A DNA stretch of 32,000 nt from Acidothermus cellulolyticus 11B (GCF_000015025.1 NC_008578.1:1020001-1052000), one strand, 5' to 3'; positions 15,217 through 26,231 are shown, counted from the first letter of the stretch. Program-made: numbers and translations. The notes: a model not told the origin generated them from the letters alone.

Positions 15217-15367
15217 GGGCGGATGCTATCCCAGGGGCGACGGCCGGGAGCTCTCCGGCGATGAGTAGCCTCGGCCTGCACCGACGGTGACCGCGCGGTC
15301 GTGGACCAGCGGAAGCCGCATCGGCGTGAACCGGCGGAAGCCCCTGCTGAGCGGAGAGGGCACGAGC

Positions 15368-15886
15368 GTGGTCGAACGGATCGTCTTGGTCGGCATGATG
15401 GGCGCCGGTAAATCAACCGTCGGCCGGGCACTTGCCGACCGGCTGAACTGGTCGTACCTCGACAACGACGAGGTGGTCGCGAAGCTCACCGGGTTGCCGA
15501 CCCGCGAGCTCCTTGCCCAGCGGGGTGTCGCGGGGCTGCGCGCCGCCGAGTCCCGGGCCGTCGACGAGGTGCTCGCCGCCCCACCGCCGTTGGTTGCCGG
15601 AGCAGCGGCCGGCATTGTCGAAGACGAGGCGGCGTGCGCCCGGCTGCGGGCCGGCGCGTATGTGGTCTACCTGAGGGCCCGGCTCGAGACCCTCGTCGAG
15701 CGGGTCACAGGTACCGACCGGCCTTGGCTGGGCGACGATCCGGCTGGTGCGCTACGGCGGCTGTACGCCGGTCGCGAGCCTCGCTACCAACAACTTGCGC
15801 ACCTCGTGGTCGACGTCGACGACCGGTCCGCCGACGACGTCGCAACAGCGATCATCAACGCGGCTGGGATCGGCGTAGGCCGCTGA
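15368..15886 (+). CDS. Shikimate kinase-family P-loop kinase (paralogue, substrate motif degenerate)
   Basis: Walker A is LVGMMGAGKSTVGRALA, followed by DND in place of DTD. The overall layout is SKI-family. The shikimate-binding GGG stretch is AGAAAG. I trimmed the ORF to the GTG at 15368, downstream of GGAGAGGG. Confidence 0.75.
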   Translation: MVERIVLVGMMGAGKSTVGRALADRLNWSYLDNDEVVAKLTGLPTRELLAQRGVAGLRAAESRAVDEVLAAPPPLVAGAAAGIVEDEAACARLRAGAYVVYLRARLETLVERVTGTDRPWLGDDPAGALRRLYAGREPRYQQLAHLVVDVDDRSADDVATAIINAAGIGVGR

Positions 15887-15907: not shown

Positions 15908-15926
15908 GCCGGCCCGCCGGGCCGGC
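15908..15926. terminator. GC-rich hairpin between convergent genes (kinase paralogue / cobS)
   Basis: GCCGGCCC-GCC-GGGCCGGC forms an 8-bp perfect stem. It lies between the stops at 15886 (+) and 15968 (-). There is no U-tract. Confidence 0.3.
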
Positions 15927-15967: not shown

Positions 15968-16804
15968 CTAGGGGTGGCGGACGTCCAGGATCAGCAGGGC
16001 GGCCACCGTGGCCACCTCGCTGATGGCGCCGAGAACGTCACCGGTCACCCCGCCAAGCCGCCGTACCGCCCAGCGGCGGATCACCCAGCCGGACGCGACA
16101 GCAGTCACCACCGCGCCGGCGGCGCGGACCGCCGCAAAGGACGAGCCGGCTTCCGGATCCCAGCGCCCGAAGGCCGCAGCAGCAACGACCAGAGCGGCCG
16201 TCCAGCCGACTGCCGTCCACTTCGGGACGCTGCCGGCCGCCATCGCGCCCAATCCGGTGGGACGGGCGGCCGGCGTGCGCGGCGTACACCCCCAGAGCAT
16301 CGCCACCCGGCCGCTGACCACGGAGATCACGAGCGATTGGGTGCCGTGGTGGGCCCGCACCCCCAGCGTGAGCGCGGCGATCTCGATCACGAGCACGAGG
16401 ATCAGCGCGGCAGCACCGAGTGACCCCAGGCGGGCATCGGCCATGATCTCCAGGGTCCGGTCGCGAGGGGCCCGGCTTGCCCAGCCGTCGACGGTGTCCG
16501 CGAAGCCGTCGAGGTGCAATCCTCCGCTGACCAGCGCAGTCGCGGCTATGGCGAGAGCGGACGCCAAGGTGGCCGTCTCGACCGACGTTCCCGCCCCGGG
16601 CAGGTCGTGGATCGGGCTTGTGAACGCGACCCGGGCTGCCAGCAGGACCATCGCGCCGACTGCGGCGACCATCAGTCCGACCACAGGGGCCCAGGCCATG
16701 GCGGCGCGGACCTGCCGCCGGTCGGGTGGCGGAACCCGGCCGGCCGGGATGGCGGTGAGCAGGCTGACGGCGAGCCGCAATCCGCCGGGTGATCGGGCGG
16801 TCAC
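15968..16804 (-). CDS. cobS: Adenosylcobinamide-GDP ribazoletransferase (cobalamin synthase)
   Basis: Family motifs LRLAVSLLTAIP, GGLHLDGFADTVDG and GGVTGDVLGA are present in a polytopic membrane protein. The GTG start at 16804 overlaps the cobT stop as GTGA (16801-16804). Confidence 0.9.
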   Translation of the reverse strand: MTARSPGGLRLAVSLLTAIPAGRVPPPDRRQVRAAMAWAPVVGLMVAAVGAMVLLAARVAFTSPIHDLPGAGTSVETATLASALAIAATALVSGGLHLDGFADTVDGWASRAPRDRTLEIMADARLGSLGAAALILVLVIEIAALTLGVRAHHGTQSLVISVVSGRVAMLWGCTPRTPAARPTGLGAMAAGSVPKWTAVGWTAALVVAAAAFGRWDPEAGSSFAAVRAAGAVVTAVASGWVIRRWAVRRLGGVTGDVLGAISEVATVAALLILDVRHP

Positions 16805-17937
16805 GGTTCCGCGACCGCATTGGAACGGGTCGCACTGGCCCCCGGTGGGTGGTCGGCGCCGGTCGCCGGAGCCGAATCGTCCCGGCTTGCCCCCGGCGGC
16901 GGATACCGGCCGCTTACTCCAGCCGAAGCGAAGGTCGCCATGTGGGTGAGCGTAGCCGCCGCGGCCCGCAGTATCGGGACAGCGAGGAGCGCGCCGGTGC
17001 CTTCGCCCAGCCGGAGGCCGACGTCCAGGATCGGCGGAAGTCCGAGCTCGGCAAGCGCGATGGCATGCCCGGGCTCGGTCGACCGGTGACCGGCGACCCA
17101 CCACCGGCGTGCCCCCGGGGTGAGCCGTTCGGCCAGCAGCGCCGCCGCTCCGGTCACCACGCCGTCGAGCACCACCGGCGTACGACGATCAGCGGCCTCG
17201 GCAAGAAAACCAGCCATCGCCGCCAGATCTGCCCCGCCGATCGCCGCGACCAGGCGTACCGGGTCGTCCCGCCATGGCGTGCCCCGGCGAATCGCCGCCG
17301 TAACCATTGCGCGCTTGCGGGCGAATGCCTGGTCGTCGACGCCGGTGCCGCGGCCGGTAACCTCGCCGGCGGTCCGCCCGGTGAGGACGCCGATGAGCGC
17401 TGCCGCCGGAGTGGTGTTGCCGATCCCCATGTCCCCGGCGATCAGCAGGTCCGTACCCGCGTCGATCTCCTCGTCGGCGATGGCCCGGCCGGCCGCCATC
17501 GCCGTCACCGCCGTCTCAACGGGAATCGCGTCGGTGACGTCGATCCGTCCGGAGCCGTTCGCGACGTGCCATCGGCGGACGGCGTCCGGCCAGGGGTGAT
17601 CCCCGGCGACGGACACGTCGGCAACCCGCAGCCGCACCCCGGCCTGGCTCGCGAGGACGTTGGCCGCCGCACCCCCGGCGAGAAAGTTCGCCACCATCTG
17701 CGCGGTGACCGCGGGTGGGTACGCCGAGGCGCCGACCTCAGCAACCCCGTGATCACCAGCGAAGATGACCAGCGTGATCCGGTCGAGCGGGTCCGGCGGG
17801 CAGCGGCCTTGGACGCCGCAGAGCCAGATCGCCAGCTCTTCGAGGCGGCCGAGGGATCCTGCCGGCTTGGTCAGCTCCGCTTCCCGGCGGCGGGCCGCTT
17901 CGATGGCCGTTACATCAAGGTCAGGCGCCGTCCTCAC
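16801..17937 (-). CDS. cobT: Nicotinate-nucleotide--dimethylbenzimidazole phosphoribosyltransferase
   Basis: LTKPAGSLGRLEELA, VIFAGDHGV, GDMGIGNTT and LRLGEGTGA are present. The GTG start lies 4 nt after the cobU stop. There is a short Pro-rich C-terminal tail. Confidence 0.93.
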   Translation of the reverse strand: MRTAPDLDVTAIEAARRREAELTKPAGSLGRLEELAIWLCGVQGRCPPDPLDRITLVIFAGDHGVAEVGASAYPPAVTAQMVANFLAGGAAANVLASQAGVRLRVADVSVAGDHPWPDAVRRWHVANGSGRIDVTDAIPVETAVTAMAAGRAIADEEIDAGTDLLIAGDMGIGNTTPAAALIGVLTGRTAGEVTGRGTGVDDQAFARKRAMVTAAIRRGTPWRDDPVRLVAAIGGADLAAMAGFLAEAADRRTPVVLDGVVTGAAALLAERLTPGARRWWVAGHRSTEPGHAIALAELGLPPILDVGLRLGEGTGALLAVPILRAAAATLTHMATFASAGVSGRYPPPGASRDDSAPATGADHPPGASATRSNAVAEP

Positions 17938-17941
17938 GGGG

Positions 17942-18469
17942 TCACGTCACCCTTCTGCCGGTGAGTAAGCTCCGCCCGATGCCGGCAACCATGAAGATCA
18001 CGTCGTCGCTGTCAGCGGCCAACCGGGCATTCAGCTCGCCGAGCAGGTCGCGGAAGATCCGACCCGACGGGTACGGCGGCACGACACCACAGCCGACCTC
18101 ATTGCTCACCGCGACGACAACGCCGCGGCACGCTCCCCACGCGGCGGCCAGTTCGTCCATCCGCTCGGCGGCCCTCGACGGCGTCTCGTCCAGGACCCGG
18201 GCGAGCCAGACCGTCAGGCAGTCCACCAGAGCAGCCTGGTCAGGCTGCAGGTCCGCCAAGATGTCAGCCACCGCCGTCGTCTCGATGGTCGTCCAGGACG
18301 CCGGCCGGCGTCGGCGGTGGTCTGCGATCCGAGCCGACCACTCCGGGTCGGTGCCGTCGTCCGCCGCGGTCGCGACGTACTGGACGTGGCTCCGGTCGGC
18401 GAGCAACCGCTCGGCGTACCGGGACTTGCCGGACCGCACCCCGCCGAGAACGAGGACCCGTCGGCTCAT
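17942..18469 (-). CDS. cobU: Bifunctional adenosylcobinamide kinase / adenosylcobinamide-phosphate guanylyltransferase
   Basis: P-loop VLVLGGVRSGKSRYAE, YVATA and VVAVSNEVGCGVVP are present. I trimmed the 350-aa ORF to the ATG at 18469, which overlaps the upstream stop as ATGA. An alternative ATG is at 18478. Confidence 0.9.
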   Translation of the reverse strand: MSRRVLVLGGVRSGKSRYAERLLADRSHVQYVATAADDGTDPEWSARIADHRRRRPASWTTIETTAVADILADLQPDQAALVDCLTVWLARVLDETPSRAAERMDELAAAWGACRGVVVAVSNEVGCGVVPPYPSGRIFRDLLGELNARLAADSDDVIFMVAGIGRSLLTGRRVT

Positions 18470-19467
18470 GGTCCGCATTCTCGGCCTGCCTCCGGCGCCG
18501 ACCCTGCCGGCCGGCGCGCGTCGGGAGGGAACGGCGTGCCGGGCTCCGGTCCGTTGCCGGGGAACGAGGTGACGGGCTCCGGCCGGTCGGCGGGGAGCGG
18601 GGTGACGCTGACCGTCGCGTCGAACGCCGCCCGCCGAGCTGCTCGTCGCAGCGCTGCGAGCACCGGGCGGCCGGCGACCGCGACCAGCAGGGCGTTGGCC
18701 GCGGCCCGTGGGATGTCGAAGCCGAGCGACGTGGCGACGTAGAACGCCATGAAGTGGCGCAGCTCGGTCAGCGGATCCGCGCCCGGAACATAGCTGATCC
18801 CTGCAGCAAGTCCGGTGGTCTGCAGCGGCCAGAACCACAGGTCCATGACCGCGCCGTACGCCAGACCGGCGCATGCGCCGTATCCGGCGAGCATGGCGAT
18901 CTCCGGCCATCTCCCGTGCCACCGCCGCGGCACCGGCAGGCATCCCGCTCCGAGCCCCACCCAGCCGGCAGCGATCATCTGGAAGGGCAGCCACGGCCCG
19001 ACCCCGCCGGTGAGCAGTGCGCTTGCGAACAACGTCAGGACGCCGAGGCAGAATCCGAATCCGGCGCCGAGCGCCCGGCCCGCCGGCATCAGGAGGAAGA
19101 ACACCGGCGACGCACCGGTGATCTCACCGCCGAACGGCCGCAACGCCGCACCGCACCCGGCGAGCACCCCGAGGATGGCGATTGCCTTGGCATCCAGCCG
19201 CCCGTCGGCGAACTCGGCTAGCACGACCGCCAGCACGGCGGGCAGTACGGTCAGGAAGATCCACGGCGCGTCACCGGCATGCGCGGCATTGGGGGAGGCG
19301 TGCGGCGGGGTCGCCGCGAGGAACGGCCAGCCGAACGCCAGGACACCGACTGCGCTCGCCAGCAGGAGGGCGACGGCTGACCGGGGGCGCAACGCCAGGG
19401 GCCGCCGCGCTCGGCGCCGCAGCGGCACGCGCCGTGCTCGGTTCCGCAGCAGGACGGTCTGGATCAT
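18466..19467 (-). CDS. ECF transporter substrate-specific (S) component, candidate corrinoid-specific, with Pro-rich cytoplasmic tail
   Basis: There are about 6-7 hydrophobic helices after a basic N-terminus. The gene sits directly after EcfT and EcfA. The ATG at 19467 overlaps the ATPase stop as ATGA (19464-19467). Specificity is inferred from the riboswitch and cobUTS context only. Confidence 0.72.
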   Translation of the reverse strand: MIQTVLLRNRARRVPLRRRARRPLALRPRSAVALLLASAVGVLAFGWPFLAATPPHASPNAAHAGDAPWIFLTVLPAVLAVVLAEFADGRLDAKAIAILGVLAGCGAALRPFGGEITGASPVFFLLMPAGRALGAGFGFCLGVLTLFASALLTGGVGPWLPFQMIAAGWVGLGAGCLPVPRRWHGRWPEIAMLAGYGACAGLAYGAVMDLWFWPLQTTGLAAGISYVPGADPLTELRHFMAFYVATSLGFDIPRAAANALLVAVAGRPVLAALRRAARRAAFDATVSVTPLPADRPEPVTSFPGNGPEPGTPFPPDARRPAGSAPEAGRECGP

Positions 19468-21107
19468 CGGCTGCCTGCCAACGCTGCGGCGACGTCCGCC
19501 ACCGTTAGCCACGGCAGCGGGTGGAGAATGCGGGCCACCTGCGGAGCGAACGCTGGTGTCGCGGTGACCACGCTCGCGGTCGGGCCGTCCGCCACGACCT
19601 CACCCTCCGCGAGGACGACCGTGCGGGTCGCCACCTCCGCGGCGAGTTCGACGTCGTGGGTCGCCAGCAGGATCGCCGTCCCGGAGCGGGCGAGGGTTCG
19701 GAGGAGGGCGGCGAGCCGTGCCTTCGCGGTGTAGTCAAGACCCCGGGTCGGCTCGTCGAGGGCGAGGACCCGCGGCCGCCGGGACAGGACCACCGCCAAG
19801 GCGACGGCGAGTTGTTCACCCTCGGACAGGTCGCGCGGATGGCGGTGTGGCTCGATGTCAGGGGCGATGGTCTGGAGGGTGGACAGGCCGTCGGGGAGGT
19901 CGGCCAGCTCCCCGGCGACGGTGTCGGCATAGAACAGATCGCTCGGTTCATGCGGGACGAAGCCCACGCACCGCACGAGCCCGCCCGCCGACAGTCGGTG
20001 TGGTGCTGCGCCGCAGACTCGGACGTCCCCGCGCCACGGCACCGCAAGCCCGGCGATGTGCGCGAGGAGCGTGGTTTTCCCGGCGCCGTTCCGGCCCATC
20101 ACCGCGACAATCTCACCGGCGTCCACCTGAATCGTGACGTCACGGAGCGCCGGTCTCCCGTCATATCCGGCGGTCAGTCTCCGGACGTCGACCACCGGAT
20201 CAGGGGTGGGTCGTCCCAACCCGTCGTGATGAGCGGTCGGTTCGGAGCGTGCGGCCGGCGACCGGTGGGTGCCGTTCGCCGCAGCCGCGGTCAGGGTGGC
20301 GAGGCGATCGCGAAGCTGTTCGGCGTGTCGTCGGGCGTCCCGGATCGAGAGGGGCACCGGATGCCATCCGGCGAGCCGGGCCAGGTGGACGACCGGCGGG
20401 GCCAGCGGGGAGACGGCCATCGCCGCGGCCGGCGATTCGGCGACGACGCGGCCGTCACCGGGCAGGAGCAGGATGCGGTCGGCGTACTGAACGATCCGTT
20501 CCAACCGGTGCTCGGCCACCAGCACGGTCATCCCGAGGTCGTGCACCAGCCGGGTGAGGACGGCCAGCACCTCTTCGGCTGCCGGCGGGTCCAGCGCCGA
20601 CGTCGGCTCGTCGAGGACGAGAATCCGCGGCCCCGCCGTGAGCACGGCGCCGATGGCGACGCGTTGCTGCTCGCCGCCGGAAAGGTCGCCGAGCCGGCGG
20701 GACCGCAGCGCGGAGAGGTCCAGGAGATCGAGGATGTCTTCCACCCGACGGCGCATCGTGGCCGGCGGCACACCTAGCCACTCCATGGCGTAGGCGAGCT
20801 CGTCCTCGACCGTGTCGGTGACGAAACCGGCCGCCGGGTCCTGGCCGACGTAACCGACGATGTCGGCGAGCTCGCGGGGCGGGTGATCCCTGGTGTCCCG
20901 CCCTGCGACGATCACTCGGCCGGCGAGGTGCCCACCGGTGAAGTGCGGGACGAGACCGTTGACCGCACGCAGCAGCGTCGACTTGCCCGACCCCGTGCCG
21001 CCGACCACCAGGGTGAGCTCTCCCTCGGGGATCGCGAGAGTGACGCCGTCGAGGACCGGCCGGTCGGTCTCCGGGTACCGGAACGTCACTCGATCGAAGG
21101 TGATCAC
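19464..21107 (-). CDS. Fused ECF-type ABC ATPase (EcfA1-EcfA2, two nucleotide-binding domains)
   Basis: NBD1 has GGTGSGKST, LSGGEQQRVAIG and ILVLDEPT. NBD2 has GRNGAGKTT, LSEGEQLAVALA and VLALDEPT. The GTG at 21107 overlaps the EcfT stop as GTGA. The 693-aa ORF in the track is a 5' over-extension. Confidence 0.93.
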   Translation of the reverse strand: MITFDRVTFRYPETDRPVLDGVTLAIPEGELTLVVGGTGSGKSTLLRAVNGLVPHFTGGHLAGRVIVAGRDTRDHPPRELADIVGYVGQDPAAGFVTDTVEDELAYAMEWLGVPPATMRRRVEDILDLLDLSALRSRRLGDLSGGEQQRVAIGAVLTAGPRILVLDEPTSALDPPAAEEVLAVLTRLVHDLGMTVLVAEHRLERIVQYADRILLLPGDGRVVAESPAAAMAVSPLAPPVVHLARLAGWHPVPLSIRDARRHAEQLRDRLATLTAAAANGTHRSPAARSEPTAHHDGLGRPTPDPVVDVRRLTAGYDGRPALRDVTIQVDAGEIVAVMGRNGAGKTTLLAHIAGLAVPWRGDVRVCGAAPHRLSAGGLVRCVGFVPHEPSDLFYADTVAGELADLPDGLSTLQTIAPDIEPHRHPRDLSEGEQLAVALAVVLSRRPRVLALDEPTRGLDYTAKARLAALLRTLARSGTAILLATHDVELAAEVATRTVVLAEGEVVADGPTASVVTATPAFAPQVARILHPLPWLTVADVAAALAGSR

Positions 21108-22282
21108 TTGCCCTCCCGGCTGGGCCGGCCGGTCCGTGCACGAGTGCGGCGCATGTCCGGCGTCGTATGCGCGATTACGACGGGGATCGCCGCGGCCAGA
21201 ATGCCGGCCACGGCGATCCCTGGCGTCGCCGGCAGCACCGGCGGATATCCCGTCGGGTTGAGCGCGGCTGCGTCGATGTGACCGGCGCTGATCACACCAG
21301 CGGCGGCTGCGGAGCCGGCCGCCGCCACGATCCAGGAGGCTGGGGTCCACTGGGGCGGCCGGTAGCGGGTGCGGACGGCGTCGGCCCGTCCGGCGAGCAC
21401 GGCGAGGGCGGCGAGGAGCGCACCGCCGGCGGCCAGCGGAAGTCCGACGCCGCCCGGGGTGCCTGGCGTGAGGAGGGCGTACGACGCGGCGGCCGTAGCG
21501 AGCAGGCCCACGACAAGGCCGGCGGTGACAAGCCGCCGCCGCCACCGCGGCGCGGATCCCCGCCGGCCAAAGCCGCGGGCGTCCATCGCTGCGGCCAAGT
21601 TGATCGATCGCTCGAGTGCACCATGCAGGACAGGCAGCGCCGAACGGACCCAGCTGACCAACCCGCGGTCCGGTTCGCCGCGCAAGCGTCGGGCCCGCCG
21701 GACTCGGCGGGCGGCCGTCGCAAGTTCCGGGGCCACTGACAGGGCGACGGCGACGGCTACGCCCATCTCATAGAGCGCGGCCGGCAGCAGCCGCAGCAGC
21801 GACCGCGGATCGGCGATCGCCACAGCGGCACCGATCGCGAGGATCAGCGCGGCGAACTGGAGTGCGCCGTACAACGCGTTGAGCAGCGCCTCGACGGTGA
21901 CCGGCCCGCCGATGTGCAGGCCGACGAGGAAATCGGGCACGGGCACCTGCGGGAGCGCCACGACGACATGCCCGGGGAGGCCTGACGTGAAGATCACGGC
22001 TAGCGCCATGCGGAGTGCGACGACAACCGTCGCCAGGCGGAGGAAGAACCCGAAGAGCCGGGTGTGGGCCCGTACGGCGGCGACATATCCGGTGACCGCG
22101 AGGATGAGGCTGAGCAGGATCGGATTGGTGGTGCGGCTGGCCGCTACCGCGAGCCCGGTTGCCCAGATCCACCACGCCCCGGGGTGGAGCCCGTCACGCG
22201 GTTGGGTGACCGGCCCGGTTCGTTCGGCACGTTTGCGGTTGGCGGCGGTGACGCCGGCTCGGCCCGGTGCGACCGTGCTCAT
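21104..22282 (-). CDS. ecfT: Energy-coupling factor transporter transmembrane protein EcfT
   Basis: This is a polytopic membrane protein with the EcfT coupling-helix motif AAAMDARGFG and an Arg-rich loop RRVRRARRLRGEP. The ATG at 22282 overlaps the upstream stop as ATGA (22279-22282). Confidence 0.85.
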   Translation of the reverse strand: MSTVAPGRAGVTAANRKRAERTGPVTQPRDGLHPGAWWIWATGLAVAASRTTNPILLSLILAVTGYVAAVRAHTRLFGFFLRLATVVVALRMALAVIFTSGLPGHVVVALPQVPVPDFLVGLHIGGPVTVEALLNALYGALQFAALILAIGAAVAIADPRSLLRLLPAALYEMGVAVAVALSVAPELATAARRVRRARRLRGEPDRGLVSWVRSALPVLHGALERSINLAAAMDARGFGRRGSAPRWRRRLVTAGLVVGLLATAAASYALLTPGTPGGVGLPLAAGGALLAALAVLAGRADAVRTRYRPPQWTPASWIVAAAGSAAAAGVISAGHIDAAALNPTGYPPVLPATPGIAVAGILAAAIPVVIAHTTPDMRRTRARTGRPSREGK

Positions 22283-23223
22283 CGGTTGCCTCGCCGACGA
22301 TTGATCGCCGTCCATGCCCCAGCCGAGCCGAGGAGGACGGCGGCTGCTCCCGCGATCACGGTTGCCGGGTCCACGCCGCCGGTATGCGCTGTCGCTGGAT
22401 GTGCCGCCGTGGTCGGGACCGACGGTGTGGTACTCGGGTCGCTGGTTGCCGACGGCTGCGCGCCGCCGGAGGCTCCTGTCGCCGGCAGGGCCTCGCTCGG
22501 GGTGCTCTGCTGCGGCCGGCTGCCCTCGGTCGGCGGCGCGGTTGCCGCCGGCACGGTCGATGCAGCCGTCCCAGTGCTCGGCGTCCGACTTGGTGGGGCG
22601 GCGGACGCCGACGCCGACGCCGATGTCGTACCGGCCGCGACTGGCGACCGGCTGACCGAGACCGCGGGTGCGCATTCGCTGCGAGGGTATCCGTCGATGC
22701 CGCAGATGAGCCCGGAGGAACCGATCCGTACGTTGTCCTGGCCCACGGCGGCGACGAGGACGTCGGCGCCGGTCTGCCCCTGCCGTACCGTGACGCATTT
22801 CGTGATCACACGTGCCGGAGGGGTCTCCCCGGGCGGGGCATCCGACGGCGTCCCGAAGTCGATGACGATGCCGACGGAGATGAGGTCCGGCGCGGTCGGC
22901 GATGGGCAGATCAGCTGACTCGGGGGGACGCGGGGCGTCAGCGGGGTGTCGACCGCGCCTTGGACGCCGAAGCGCCAGCCCTGCACCTCGCCGTTGACGG
23001 GATGCTCGGCGGCCGGCCCGCGCTGGGCGTACACCCACCTGCCGTTCTCGGCGAGGTAGTACGCCCAGTACCGGTAGGCGGTGTCCGCCCGGACCGGACC
23101 GGCGGTGCCGACGACGGCCGCTGCCGCGGCCCCGCCGAGGCTTGCCAGTGTCCAGAGCGCGAGGGCCACCGCCGCCCTGGCGGAGCGGCGGCGGCCGGCT
23201 TCGCGTCCTGGACCCGTCATCAC
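22279..23223 (-). CDS. Secreted, C-terminally membrane-anchored protein (SCO2322-family-like, function unknown)
   Basis: The signal-like N-terminus is RRRSARAAVALALWTLASLGGAAAA. A small globular N-domain follows (YRYWAYYLAENGRWVYAQRGPAAEHPVNGEVQGWRF), then a Cys-containing middle domain, a long Ser/Thr/Pro/Ala linker, and a C-terminal TM helix with RRRGNR. The start overlaps the upstream stop (GTGATG at 23218-23223). The family name is from memory of PGAP annotations. Confidence 0.7.
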   Translation of the reverse strand: MMTGPGREAGRRRSARAAVALALWTLASLGGAAAAAVVGTAGPVRADTAYRYWAYYLAENGRWVYAQRGPAAEHPVNGEVQGWRFGVQGAVDTPLTPRVPPSQLICPSPTAPDLISVGIVIDFGTPSDAPPGETPPARVITKCVTVRQGQTGADVLVAAVGQDNVRIGSSGLICGIDGYPRSECAPAVSVSRSPVAAGTTSASASASAAPPSRTPSTGTAASTVPAATAPPTEGSRPQQSTPSEALPATGASGGAQPSATSDPSTTPSVPTTAAHPATAHTGGVDPATVIAGAAAVLLGSAGAWTAINRRRGNR

Positions 23224-24467
23224 GAGCGGCTGCGGCGTGGGCGACGAGCGCTGAGGACGAGCGCGGTTCCCAATGCGAGCAGCACCACCCCGGCTGCGGC
23301 GACCGGCAGGTCGACGCGCGAACCGGTCATCGGCAGGGTCGCCGGGGTTGCGGTCGGCCGCGGGGTCGCCGAGGCACTGGCGCTCGGGGTTGGGGTCGCT
23401 GTCGCTGGGGCTGATCGTTCGGTGGCGAGCAGGGCAGCGACGAGGTCAACGCCGCCGAAGTTCCGCGGGTTGGTACCCGTTGCGGCGGCGACGAGGAGCA
23501 GGGTGCCGACCGCTCCGGGCGACGTCGTGCCGTTGCTGGTGATGTAGCTCCGCGCGTTCGTCTGCAGGGCGGCAAGCCCCTCCTGGACTGCGGCTGCCCC
23601 CTGCCCGGCGGCGATCAAGTCCAGGAGGGCGTTCGCGGTGGTCGTCCAGTCGGTGCCGCTGCCGAACGCGGACGGGATCGCGCCGTGCGTGGCCGTGAGC
23701 CGGTTCGCGAGATAGCCGATGGCGTCGGCTGCCGCGGTCGCGGCGTCGGTGCTCGGGACACACGCCGGTACGGCGGCGGCCGGGGTAGCGGCCGGGACCG
23801 GAAGCGCCTTGCCGAGGAGGCCCAAGACGGCCTGGACCGTCGCGTAGTCATTGGCCGCCAGCGGGGTCTCCGGCTGGTAGTCGAAGGCACCAGCGCCGCT
23901 CCCCGCCGTACAAGGAACCTGTATCGAGCGGAGGAAGTCGATGCCGTTCTTGCCGTTCTTCGTGATTGACGTGGGGTCGATGCCGGCCGCAGCGAAGGTA
24001 CTGAGGGCGAGTCCCGTCGAGTTGGCGTCTGAAGCCGGCGTGCCGAAGGCGGCGCTCGCATAGAACCCACCGTCGGCGAGCTGGAAGTTGGCGAGCGCAT
24101 GGGCGGCCGCTGTTCCGGCAGCGGTCTTGCCGGCTGCGATGAGGGCCATTGCGGCGAGCGCGGTTGCGTTGGAGTCTTCCTTGCTCGTCTGGCACGGCAC
24201 GGTCGGGTCGGGTCGGTACGCGGTGAAGGCGCCGTCCGCGCACTGCTGGCCGAGCAGCCAGTCGATGGCGGCCGCATCCGGGTGTTGGCCGGCGGCGATG
24301 AGTCCGAGGACGGCGAGACCCTGCCGGTAGACGCCGTCGTACGTCGGGTCCGCCGAGCCGAAGAGGCCCGTGTCGGACGATGCGGCGGTGGCAGGGGCGG
24401 TGACAGCAAGCGGGGCGATCGCGGCCAGGACAGCTGCGACGCCGGCACGGCGAAGCGTACGGATCAT
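23220..24467 (-). CDS. Cell-wall-anchored (LPXTG) prenyltransferase/squalene-oxidase-repeat (alpha/alpha toroid) protein
   Basis: The signal peptide is MIRTLRRAGVAAVLAAIAPLAVTAPATAAS. Repeated toroid-type repeats are present (QQCADGAFTAY, FQLADGGFYAS, GAGAFDYQ). The C-terminal sorting signal is LPMTG plus a hydrophobic helix plus RRPRRSRS. The ATG at 24467 is preceded by GGAGAGGA. Confidence 0.8.
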   Translation of the reverse strand: MIRTLRRAGVAAVLAAIAPLAVTAPATAASSDTGLFGSADPTYDGVYRQGLAVLGLIAAGQHPDAAAIDWLLGQQCADGAFTAYRPDPTVPCQTSKEDSNATALAAMALIAAGKTAAGTAAAHALANFQLADGGFYASAAFGTPASDANSTGLALSTFAAAGIDPTSITKNGKNGIDFLRSIQVPCTAGSGAGAFDYQPETPLAANDYATVQAVLGLLGKALPVPAATPAAAVPACVPSTDAATAAADAIGYLANRLTATHGAIPSAFGSGTDWTTTANALLDLIAAGQGAAAVQEGLAALQTNARSYITSNGTTSPGAVGTLLLVAAATGTNPRNFGGVDLVAALLATERSAPATATPTPSASASATPRPTATPATLPMTGSRVDLPVAAAGVVLLALGTALVLSARRPRRSRS

Positions 24468-24518
24468 GTAATCCTCTCCGGTTCTGGCTGCGAGGCCGGT
24501 CCCGGAGATGAGACCCGG

Positions 24519-24548
24519 AGATAACGAACCCCACGCGTTCGCGTGGGG
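24519..24548 (-). terminator. Riboswitch expression-platform hairpin (candidate intrinsic terminator)
   Basis: The minus strand reads CCCCACGC-GAAC-GCGTGGGG, an 8-bp perfect stem, followed by TTCGTTATCT. It lies between the aptamer and the SD of the first gene. Confidence 0.5.
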
Positions 24549-24606
24549 CTGCTCCGGGTGTTCCCGGCTCCGCCCCGCAGACCACGACGGTTGTCAGGAG
24601 CCTCTC

Positions 24607-24707
24607 CGCGCCCGGCAGGTACTCCGGCTCGCCGCGGACAGCGCCGCGGCCTACGGTTGCGGGTCAGCGCCGGACTTTGACCGGCTTCCCCTGCACGTTC
24701 GGGCGCG
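24607..24707 (-). promoter_or_regulatory. Cobalamin (AdoCbl) riboswitch aptamer, compact form
   Basis: The minus strand reads CGCGCCCG-AAC-GTGCAGGGGAAGCCGGTCAAAGTCCGGCGCTGACCCGCAACCGTAGGCCGCGGCGCTGTCCGCGGCGAGCCGGAGTACCTGC-CGGGCGCG. P1 is 8 bp (24707-24700 with 24614-24607). The conserved GGGAAGCCGGT.AAA.TCCGGCGC.GACCCGCAACCGTA core is present. A B12-box-like GAGCCGGAGTACCTGCC lies at 24630-24614. Confidence 0.85.
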
Positions 24708-24931
24708 TATGAAGGTGTTGCCGCGTTGAGCAAATCACGCCGACCCTCGGCGGGTCAACGCGGGGTCGGCAGGTTGCGCCGGGTGCGACATCGGCCGGCG
24801 GTTCCAGGCAGCCCGACAGGAGCCTGAGGTGCACAGGTACGCCGCAGCGCGAGCCCCACGGTGGGGGCCGGCCGGTGCGCTGCAGCCTCGGGTCGCACGT
24901 AACCGACGCCCTGCCAGTAAGGTGATCGTCC

Positions 24932-25229: not shown

Positions 25230-26231
25230 TCACGGGCGTCTCGGCAGCTGCGCGGTTTGCTTGGGGTCGCGCTCGATGACCGGATCGAGAATCTCATCGA
25301 TCCGCGCAAGGAGGTCCTTTTCTAATTTCACGCCGCTTGCTTTGACGTTCGCGTGAATTTGCTCCGGGCGGCTGGCGCCGATGATGGCGGACGAAACAAG
25401 GGGATTCTGCAAAACCCAGGCGAGCGCGAGGGTCGCCATATCCAACCCCGCTTCCGCGGCCAGCGGCCGCAGGCGTTGCACCCGGGAAAGGACATCGTCG
25501 CGCAACCACCGGGAAATGAACGTCGCGCCGCCTTTCTCATCGGTGGCCCGCGACCCCGGCGGCGGCGGCTGACCTGGTGCGTATTTTCCGGTCAGGACTC
25601 CTTGCGCAAGCGGAGAGAAGACGATCTGGCCGATTCCCTCTTTCTTCGCCAACGGCAGAATTTCGGCTTCGATGACGCGCCACAGCATGTTGTACTGCGG
25701 CTGGTTCGACACGATGCGGTCGAAACCCATGTCGTCGGCGATGCGCAGGGCATCGGCAATTTGACCGGCCGTCCATTCGCTCACGCCGACGTAGAGAACC
25801 TTGCCTTGCCGGACCAAATCGTCAAAGGCGCGCAGGGTTTCTTCCAGCGGGGTCTCGACGTCGTACCGATGCGCCTGGTAGAGGTCGAGATAGTCGGTGC
25901 GCAGCCGGCGCAGTGAGGCGTGGCAGCTTTCGATGATGTGTTTGCGGGAGAGGCCGCGGTCATTCGGGCCCGGGCCGGTCGGCCAGAACACTTTGGTTGC
26001 CAGCTCGTAGGACTCGCGACGGACGCCGGCGAGCGCTTTGCCAAGGACCTCCTCCGCGCGCGTGCCGGCGTACACGTCCGCGGTGTCAAACGTGGTGATG
26101 CCGGCGTCGAGAGCGGCGTGGACACAAGCGATTGCCGTATCGGCGTCGATTTGCGCGCCGTGGGTGAGCCAATTCCCGTATGCGATCTCTGAGACCATGA
26201 GGCCGCTGCGGCCCAGATGACGAAACTCCAT
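25230..26231 (-). CDS. Aldo/keto reductase (Kv-beta / YajO-like subgroup)
   Basis: [39 protein letters not shown] and IIGASRPEQ are present. I trimmed the 436-aa ORF to the ATG at 26231. Confidence 0.92.

Follow-up and report, generated by a model that had tools for sequence, protein, structure and literature searches.

What are two exported proteins of uncharacterised families doing at the head of a vitamin B12 operon? The question is raised by a 32-kb stretch of the Acidothermus cellulolyticus 11B genome (hereafter the window, with positions counted from its first nucleotide), in which a cobalamin riboswitch on the minus strand is followed by eight genes, referred to here as G1 to G8. G1 and G2 encode the two exported proteins, G3 to G5 the components of an energy-coupling factor (ECF) importer, and G6 to G8 the nucleotide-loop enzymes CobU, CobT and CobS. 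Gram-positive scavenging of trace B12 in nature is poorly understood. ECF transporters are textbook importers that operate without a separate substrate-binding protein, and a conserved extracytoplasmic partner for one of them is unusual. With some reserve, we favour reading the locus as a B12-repressed operon for corrinoid capture, import and nucleotide-loop assembly. What this says of the riboswitch, the ECF importer and the cob genes we hold with high confidence; that G1 and G2 would be corrinoid binders is a view towards which we incline slightly. We infer that B12 represses a single transcript and that a corrinoid is the substrate.

The argument begins with the riboswitch. The first-pass annotation, made from the sequence alone, had placed a cobalamin riboswitch at 24607-24707 on the minus strand. 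Its presence stands and its extent is slightly wider, with the aptamer (clan CL00101) occupying 24597..24738 on that strand by RF00174 and a custom covariance model, R1. In an Rfam cmscan the RF00174 match reaches 33.4 bits (gathering score 31.5; E 4.7e-5), spans the full model (1-189) and is the sole gathering-level RNA in the whole window. Since this score is marginal, the riboswitch was tested through relatives. Three of seven related loci (L007, L019 and L048) carry a gathering-level match from the cobalamin clan, with scores of 36.1 and 37.0 on RF00174 and 66.7 on RF01482, and two more (L001 and L035) have matches below threshold in the same place, at 34.6 and 27.8. R1, which was built from four Rfam-verified copies, gives the window riboswitch 120.7 bits. 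It was applied to 80 actinobacterial loci drawn from a genome-collection scan with the G2 family, all of which contain G2 by construction, and in 70 of them it detects a single copy each (E 1e-31 to 4e-11), with no others in 1.17 Mb. Each copy lies on the coding strand directly 5' of the first gene, at a distance of -9 to 802 nt from where the first tblastn match begins. The remaining 10 loci all end upstream at a contig edge, and the riboswitch is present in 70 of the 70 loci with enough upstream DNA. Across 69 aligned copies, 96.4% of cells are paired and 16 of 26 pairs show compensatory changes, counts that lean towards structure because the copies had been aligned to the model. The same alignment has a covariation score of 0.481, whereas shuffles score 0.147, with none of 500 reaching the observed value, and slid controls never exceed 0.112. 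A genuine cobalamin-clan riboswitch is thus confirmed at the head of the eight-gene unit.

Between the aptamer and G1 lies the expression platform (24468..24596, minus strand), as read from the sequence. It contains a GC hairpin at 24548-24529, followed by TTCGTTAT at 24528-24521. The heptamer TCTCCGG occurs twice (24521-24515 and 24508-24502) and is complementary to the ribosome-binding region CCGGAGA(GG) at 24480-24473. The leader of 146 nt has a folding energy of -76.8 kcal/mol (z = -5.19 against shuffles), and the hairpin received no terminator call in a consensus scan.

Downstream of the leader, eight minus-strand open reading frames (ORFs) follow one another with a GC content at third codon positions of 0.82-0.88 and no internal stops. 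Six junctions overlap, three as GTGA (23220-23223, 21104-21107 and 16801-16804) and three as ATGA (22279-22282, 19464-19467 and 18466-18469), and the single gap in the operon is 4 nt (CCCC) at 17938-17941. These junctions had all been listed beforehand, and every coordinate is exact. Public gene calls on identical contigs agree with the ORFs, except that CobU starts three codons earlier. The layout supports one tightly packed, overlap-coupled unit, as had been proposed. The host is a high-GC actinobacterium and scans for promoters and terminators are therefore uninformative: a sigma-70 scan of the operon found no promoter-like sites, and the consensus terminator scan found 2 terminator-like sites against 1.9 expected from shuffles.

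The three genes in the middle of the unit encode an importer. G3 (392 aa; 21104..22282, minus strand) is the EcfT coupling component: a profile of its family (alignment A7) matches only EcfT chains among PDB sequences (5d3m_D at 7e-10, 4huq_T and 4hzu_T; up to 1.3e-9), and the single sequence reaches 20.7 bits on Pfam CbiQ, under the cut-off of 25. Solved EcfT proteins have about 265 aa, and G3 carries a C-terminal extension of about 130 aa (window 21104-21500). The extension adds hydrophobic segments and a conserved motif, R-x-R-Y-R-P-x-x-W, in which Y307, R308, P309 and W312 are invariant in A7. G4 (547 aa; 19464..21107, minus strand) is a fused EcfA-EcfA' ATPase. Pfam ABC_tran matches it in two stretches (5.2e-49), which correspond to two ATP-binding cassette (ABC) domains, and its top NCBIfam models are ECF_ATPase_1 and ECF_ATPase_2, both under their equivalog cut-offs. 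G5 (333 aa; 18466..19467, minus strand) is an S-component that is distantly CbrT-like. On its own it scores 25.7 bits on ECF_trnsprt (PF12822), under the cut-off of 30.7, and 15 of 33 members of its family match that model (best E 1.9e-12). The family profile finds one PDB sequence only, 6fnp_A (E 6.2e-5, 24 bits, about 155 profile positions), which we take to be CbrT because of its length of 182 aa and its label 'Membrane protein'. CbrT is said to have been first predicted by Rodionov et al. in 2009. The 6FNP structure is that of ECF-CbrT, a vitamin B12 transporter that imports cobalamin and cobinamide and does not import hemin (PMC5997447), and 'CbrUVT' is the name given by the Rodionov group to dedicated B12 ECF systems (PMC6593275, PMC8123684). 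Taken together, the matches support G3 to G5 as an ECF transporter of the dedicated group I kind.

The last three genes are those of the nucleotide loop. G6 (175 aa; 17942..18469, minus strand) is CobU, the adenosylcobinamide kinase/cobinamide-phosphate guanylyltransferase (Pfam CobU 1.3e-53; NCBIfam PRK05800, NF004469, 175.3 bits against a cut-off of 161). G7 (378 aa; 16801..17937, minus strand) is CobT, the nicotinate-nucleotide:dimethylbenzimidazole phosphoribosyltransferase (Pfam DBI_PRT 2.1e-125; TIGR03160 403.4 bits against 319.3). G8 (278 aa; 15968..16804, minus strand) is CobS, the adenosylcobinamide-GDP ribazoletransferase (Pfam CobS 3.3e-45, 155.2 bits against 23.2), with NCBIfam equivalog models under their cut-offs (TIGR00317 102.1 against 110). 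The first-pass annotation had named both an ECF importer and cobU-cobT-cobS here. The former is upheld by the EcfT profile, the two ABC domains of G4 and the S-component profile that reaches 6FNP alone, and the latter by these family matches. Remodelling of imported corrinoids, which that annotation also allowed for, is conjectural: the eight genes of the operon include no CbiZ, CobC or adenosyltransferase gene.

How constant is this arrangement? The contents of the 80 loci were read by tblastn with the eight window proteins. G2, EcfT, EcfAA' and the S-component are contiguous in essentially all loci of sufficient length, and G1 stands 5' of G2 in about half. Two classes can be distinguished. 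Class A has the order riboswitch-G1-G2-EcfT-EcfAA'-S-CobU-CobT-CobS and comprises about 30 loci (Acidothermaceae, some Nanopelagicales, Longivirga and others), while class B consists of riboswitch-G2-EcfT-EcfAA'-S alone (Nanopelagicaceae, Raineyella, Propionibacteriaceae). Since both G1 and cobUTS are absent from loci of the Nanopelagicaceae type, they are optional, and the invariant unit is riboswitch-G2-EcfT-EcfAA'-S. Streptomyces venezuelae has G1-G2-T-AA'-S, and cob genes are absent there. The three most distant G1 homologues that were looked up (40-45% identity) all adjoin PF28005 proteins, the family of G2, and none of the three stands beside a DUF4430 gene; ECF genes follow for two of them (P0160 and P0149) and not for the third (P0168). 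The pair of a toroid and an SCO2322-like protein had been predicted to travel with riboswitches in related genomes, a linkage on which the first-pass annotation staked its proposal in advance, and this is what the relatives show. The PF28005 protein is accordingly a fixed partner of a riboswitch-controlled ECF importer, from the thermophilic Acidothermus and from Streptomyces to the B12-auxotrophic freshwater acI bacteria.

The acI lineage also bears on the substrate. No B12 biosynthesis is encoded in acI genomes, where an ECF module described as a putative cobalamin transporter stands behind Cbl/AdoCbl riboswitches (PMC5301498). In the acI-type loci studied here, neither cobT nor cobS was found within about 6.6 kb downstream. 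A riboswitch-controlled ECF module in bacteria that do not make B12 argues for a corrinoid as the substrate, rather than cobalt or a free lower ligand.

The first of the two exported proteins, G1 (415 aa; 23220..24467, minus strand), is a secreted alpha/alpha-toroid of the SCO2321 type, as judged from its profile, its AlphaFold2 (AF2) model and its sorting signal. The A. cellulolyticus 11B protein to which it is 100% identical carries the annotation 'LPXTG-motif cell wall anchor domain protein'. An N-terminal signal peptide is present, and the C-terminus (...ATLPMTGSRVDLPVAAAGVVLLALGTALVLSARRPRRSRS) consists of LPMTG, a hydrophobic stretch and the tail RRPRRSRS; by these signals in its sequence G1 qualifies as a sortase-dependent LPXTG surface protein. 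The sorting motif recurs in 49 of 67 G1 homologues, and the Streptomyces homologues have a membrane helix where G1 has LPXTG. G1 occupies the same genomic position as the Streptomyces SCO2321-type protein. The family profile finds squalene-hopene cyclase repeats (6e-18). The AF2 model is of high quality (pLDDT 96.9, pTM 0.93), and Foldseek places class II terpene cyclases, prenyltransferase beta subunits and complement TED domains at the top of its list. Transcobalamin comes in at ranks 39 and 47 (2bb5_A, E 2e-3, TMq 0.47; 8ixt, E 2.6e-3), and PF01122, the transcobalamin alpha domain, gives no Pfam match in G1. The catalytic motif DxD[DE] occurs in none of 68 aligned family members, G1 included. 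Four cysteines are invariant in the family, which suggests extracellular disulfides, and D16, R20, Q21, Q46, D245 and T249 are likewise invariant. G1 thus appears to be an exported, predicted wall-anchored toroid, and a role as a cyclase is very unlikely because it is exported, carries a sortase signal and lacks the DxD[DE] motif.

G2 (314 aa; 22279..23223, minus strand) belongs to NCBIfam SCO2322_fam (NF040672, 126.7 bits against a cut-off of 85), and PF28005 is recorded for the identical public gene. It is built of a signal peptide, a beta-rich domain of about 150 aa with four conserved cysteines, a Pro/Thr/Ser-rich linker and a C-terminal membrane anchor, and its AF2 model has a pLDDT of 89.6. 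Its invariant residues lie in the motifs YRYW, GWRF, DFG...DAP and GLxCGIxGYP. The profile of the G2 family has no match among PDB sequences. A C-terminal hydrophobic stretch and a basic tail are found in 44 of 48 homologues, and LPXTG occurs in the last 45 residues of none of the 48. From this helix and tail, and from the lack of LPXTG near the C-terminus, G2 is predicted to be membrane-tethered and not wall-anchored. The wall-anchored surface module of the first-pass annotation therefore holds for G1, with its LPMTG sortase-type signal, and fails for G2. An LPATG does occur in the G2 linker (window 22390-22660), with over 35 residues between it and the membrane helix; it is unconserved and probably coincidental, and it could mislead LPXTG annotation.

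The PF28005/SCO2322 family is large, with 1,754 representative clusters (50% identity, E<=1e-3) among 1.84 billion proteins, and its members are nearly all stand-alone proteins of 220-340 aa. Three apparent G1-G2 fusions, P0135 (727 aa), P0150 (634 aa) and P0263 (730 aa), were considered as domain-fusion evidence and rejected, as they look like frameshift or read-through artefacts. Such proteins would result from one frameshift where G1 and G2 overlap by 4 nt. P0135 retains the signal-peptide region of G2 and has the sorting signal of G1 replaced by out-of-frame text, and P0150 is largely frameshifted.

Does G2 resemble any known B12 binder? An in silico description of the L. sakei locus lsa1836-1840 lists an S-component, AA', T, a secreted transcobalamin-beta-like protein and a toroid (alpha-like) protein (bioRxiv 10.1101/864751), and this gene order prompted a beta-domain test of G2. 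The idea that G2 is an ordinary DUF4430/transcobalamin beta domain in its native order was rejected by Foldseek, profile, Pfam and hhalign searches, the last of which gave a probability of 1-4%. Parts of the two sequences nevertheless resemble each other in exchanged order. The N-terminal hairpins of G2, YRYWAYY...NG.W.Y..GP....P.DGEVQGWRF, are similar to EFWQLLRD...GIADYRPKDGETIELRL in the C-terminal part of the beta domain, and the C-terminal half of G2 (a strand, the helix G.TGADVL and VRIG..GLICGIDG) resembles the N-terminal part, SISVLAGSTVEDVLKKA..FTYE..PYLTSVMG. This order of motifs suggests a circular permutation. The human beta-domain query was 100% identical to residues 299-409 of 4zrp_A, and hhalign was run on every rotation of the G2 core against the PF14478 beta domain. 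Native-like rotations scored 19-20 over 35 columns (P 0.014), and rotations that place the N-terminal segment of G2 after the C-terminal one scored 24.4-25.1 over 74-80 columns (P about 1e-3). Against a beta profile of seven sequences, the permuted G2 scored 26.0 over 77 columns (P 7e-4, probability 26%). Controls stayed lower: column shuffles gave 10.8 +/- 1.9 (maximum 16.7, n = 120), or 11.3 +/- 2.1 against the seven-sequence profile (maximum 18.1, n = 100), block shuffles gave 12.6 +/- 2.5 (maximum 18.4, n = 80) and reversed controls 7-9. Enrichment of the beta profile by a homologue search brought in mammalian transcobalamin fragments only and little gain. The signal weakly suggests a relationship; it stands above composition, yet is modest and post hoc, and should be treated as a lead rather than a finding. 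That G2 may be a circularly permuted DUF4430 beta domain is, in our judgement, possible but short of probable.

These pieces can be arranged into a working scheme. When intracellular cobalamin is low, the riboswitch leader would permit expression of the eight coupled genes. G1, a non-catalytic toroid attached to the wall by sortase, and G2, held at the membrane on a long linker, would bind scarce corrinoid outside the cell and hand it over to the S-component, with G2 as the obligatory partner and G1 as an optional outer stage. The two proteins may act as counterparts of transcobalamin's alpha and beta domains, divided between two polypeptides. The ECF module of G3 to G5 would then import the corrinoid, and CobU, CobT and CobS would add the nucleotide loop, turning cobinamide-type precursors or pathway intermediates into cobalamin. 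The adenosyltransferase and the phosphatase needed for completion would be encoded elsewhere, the latter in relatives possibly as a fused metallo-beta-lactamase (MBL) domain. It is further conceivable, as speculation, that the anchor helix of G2 docks on the extension of G3. In its strongest form, that of a two-polypeptide bacterial counterpart of transcobalamin and intrinsic factor, with a permuted DUF4430 domain in G2 and a corrinoid relay from wall to membrane, the proposal is a tentative one that we consider rather doubtful.

Several observations weigh against capture of corrinoids by G1 and G2 in a B12-controlled operon. On the side of the riboswitch, the window copy barely exceeds the Rfam gathering score, the match at the Streptomyces venezuelae locus is weak (22.5 bits on R1), and Rfam reports no riboswitch in that leader at E<=1. 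On the side of the importer, the similarity of G5 to CbrT is specific but remote (E 6.2e-5). G1 is clearly homologous to NCBIfam SCO2321_fam (NF053823, an equivalog; E 5.7e-74) but at 249.4 bits stays below the cut-off of 300, and by Foldseek it is nearer to terpene cyclases and prenyltransferases than to transcobalamin, with about 38 entries ranked above the latter. The G2 model has no PDB fold match at E<1 in Foldseek, the transcobalamin beta-domain entries included; native G2 has no match to Pfam DUF4430 (PF14478) at E<=10; and hmmscan of ten permuted G2 sequences gave no DUF4430 match. The permuted hhalign probability is 15-26%, for a permutation picked after inspection of the sequences. 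G1 is missing from loci of the Nanopelagicaceae type and is thus dispensable. Lastly, no ECF genes adjoin the G1-G2 pair in three loci (L020, L028 and L085). In L020 (8463-12057) CobT follows G2 directly and the riboswitch is kept; L028 (8796-13527) also keeps the riboswitch, and G2 is separated there from the cob genes by two ORFs without a Pfam match and by an aspartate-semialdehyde-dehydrogenase-like ORF whose end of the interval overlaps that of CobU; in L085 (109-2159) the pair is followed by genes on the opposite strand. Either these loci are true variants, with the pair serving a different transporter, or they are assembly artefacts; L020 and L028 are contigs of metagenome-assembled genomes.

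The alternative that survives best takes G1 and G2 as non-binding accessories of a B12 ECF importer, which stabilise or position the complex (for instance through the G2 helix on the EcfT extension) or open a path through the wall for a 1.3-kDa solute. Small non-binding partners such as CbiN are needed by other ECF systems, genomic linkage to ECF genes is silent on ligand binding, G2 has no fold relative among known binders, and EcfT of this family has its unusual conserved C-terminal extension. A scaffold nonetheless fits worse than capture with the build of the two proteins, as G2 is large, disulfide-bearing, aromatic-rich and set on a long flexible linker, and G1 is a wall-anchored toroid. 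The weak permuted similarity of G2 to a B12-binding beta domain, the analogous L. sakei pair that resembles both halves of a known B12 binder and the few loci with G1-G2 but no adjacent ECF genes also speak against this alternative, and we regard it as unlikely.

Another possibility concerns the cargo. Cobalt transporters and genes for lower-ligand uptake are further targets of B12 riboswitches, cbiMNQO of C. difficile being an example, and an importer for cobalt (CbiMNQO-like) or for dimethylbenzimidazole or alpha-ribazole (CblT-like) would have G1 and G2 serve that substrate instead. CobT in the operon is a user of dimethylbenzimidazole, and the Pfam match of G5 is generic and below threshold. 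However, the G5 profile matches the ECF-CbrT entry and no other S-component chain in the PDB, and in acI bacteria the G2-ECF core stands behind a riboswitch where corrin biosynthesis is lacking and cobalt or the free base would be useless; a different cargo is therefore improbable. Going by its best profile and fold matches, G1 could instead be a terpene-cyclase/prenyltransferase superfamily enzyme whose substrate, under B12 scarcity, is an envelope lipid or isoprenoid, with an indirect link to transport. This is very improbable indeed. None of 68 family members has DxD[DE], and export and sortase anchoring put G1 outside the membrane, where prenyl diphosphate substrates are not at hand. Its four invariant cysteines point to extracellular disulfides, and it is always paired with G2, with ECF genes usually adjacent.

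If corrinoid capture by G1 and G2 is the reading to carry forward, how does it relate to known systems? The Isd relay of Staphylococcus aureus, in which sortase-anchored NEAT proteins pass haem to a membrane ABC importer, offers an analogy. There as here a wall protein attached by sortase, a membrane-tethered protein, an ATP-driven importer and a tetrapyrrole-type cofactor would be involved, the relay being hypothetical in the present case. The folds are unrelated, however, and the Isd importer is a type II ABC importer and not an ECF transporter. ECF-CbrT of L. delbrueckii (6FNP) shares with the window an EcfT, two ABC domains, an S-component and a gene link to B12 metabolism. It differs in that the window importer is a dedicated module with its own S-component (group I), its ATPases are fused and its EcfT has the extension of about 130 aa; one or two extracytoplasmic proteins, absent from ECF-CbrT, stand at the head of the systems described here, and the similarity to CbrT is remote. 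The likeness to mammalian transcobalamin, intrinsic factor and haptocorrin (PF01122 and PF14478), which use an alpha6/alpha6 toroid and a small beta domain to capture cobalamin outside the cell for a membrane uptake system, is a proposed one. In contrast to these, G1 and G2 are two polypeptides with different anchors, G1 is nearer to terpene cyclases, and G2 in its native order does not match the beta domain in Foldseek, HMMER or hhalign comparisons.

Closer in gene order is L. sakei lsa1836-1840, whose adjacency is the same as G5-G4-G3-G2-G1 and in which, as in the window, both accessory proteins bear export signals. The beta-like protein of L. sakei is a recognisable DUF4430 by HHpred, whereas G2 belongs to PF28005 and bears at best a permuted resemblance, and the L. 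sakei authors favour haem over B12 as the substrate (bioRxiv 10.1101/864751). The riboswitch-ECF modules of acI bacteria are the same kind of locus, with riboswitch-G2-EcfT-EcfAA'-S in Nanopelagicaceae; they lack G1 and cobUTS, and the paper describing them treats the ECF module only and leaves its SCO2322-family first gene undiscussed (PMC5301498).

The locus had initially been put forward as a candidate for an undescribed system, and this survives in part. Both surface families are uncharacterised, but they are already named (SCO2321_fam, SCO2322_fam and PF28005), and both the acI riboswitch-ECF modules (PMC5301498) and the L. sakei toroid/beta pair (10.1101/864751) had been reported. The riboswitch, the ECF-CbrT-type importer and cobUTS are of known kinds. 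The pairing of a PF28005 protein with the importer behind a riboswitch across Actinomycetota appears to be unreported, in a literature search that did not include Rodionov et al. 2009; the anchor topology of G2 and its possible permuted relationship to DUF4430 likewise appear unreported in that search, and no relevant report on SCO2321-2324 was found. Should G1 and G2 bind corrinoids, they would supply the outer step still lacking from the picture of B12 uptake in a major phylum, two 'family of unknown function' entries would gain functions, and markers would be at hand to predict B12 scavenging in metagenomes. Should the two-polypeptide transcobalamin reading be true, an ECF transporter would gain an extracytoplasmic capture stage, and G2 would be an obligatory B12 receptor across Actinomycetota, including the very abundant freshwater acI.

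Some features of the relatives and of the surroundings deserve mention. In most class A relatives CobU has an N-terminal MBL-fold domain of about 280 aa (Lactamase_B or Lactamase_B_2, with HxHxDH), for example at L003:6329-7684, L019:14242-15648 and L084:11520-12884, and CobU is free of it in the window and in L001, L007 and L008. The fused domain may supply the missing phosphatase step (CobC, or the 'CobC/CblZ' of the Rodionov group). In S. venezuelae a separate MBL-fold gene lies directly 5' of the leader (L083:6345-7406). The leader itself (L083:7400-7510) contains three tandem repeats of about 33 nt (GGTGTGAGGCGGCTCGCACCCGCC...) just 5' of a B12-core-like stretch, which is degenerate and reads GGGGGGAAGCCGGTGCGAATCCGGCCCTGACCCC.

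Downstream, the operon is limited by a convergent shikimate-kinase-like gene, beyond which come housekeeping genes for an M17 peptidase, lipoamide dehydrogenase and an E2 component. The M17 peptidase and lipoamide dehydrogenase genes recur beside cobT in other loci, which suggests that the uptake block joined a pre-existing cob cluster. The kinase-like gene (PF01202, 199 aa; 15287-15886, plus strand) is separated from cobS by an 81-nt spacer, and PF01202 also includes gluconokinase-type enzymes. Between the two genes, at 15908..15926 on the minus strand, a GC-rich hairpin of perfect 8 bp (GCCGGCCC-GGC-GGGCCGGC) was read from the sequence. It may be regarded as a candidate operon terminator, one that lacks a T-run, and it received no call in the consensus terminator scan.

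On the upstream side, some 490 nt past the riboswitch, an aldo-keto reductase gene marks the limit. In Acidothermus it encodes 333 aa and lies on the same strand (25230-26231), beside the riboswitch leader. The gene recurs beside the G1-G2 pair in distant relatives, often after a DUF3043 gene, and in L085 it is found just past G2 on the opposite strand.

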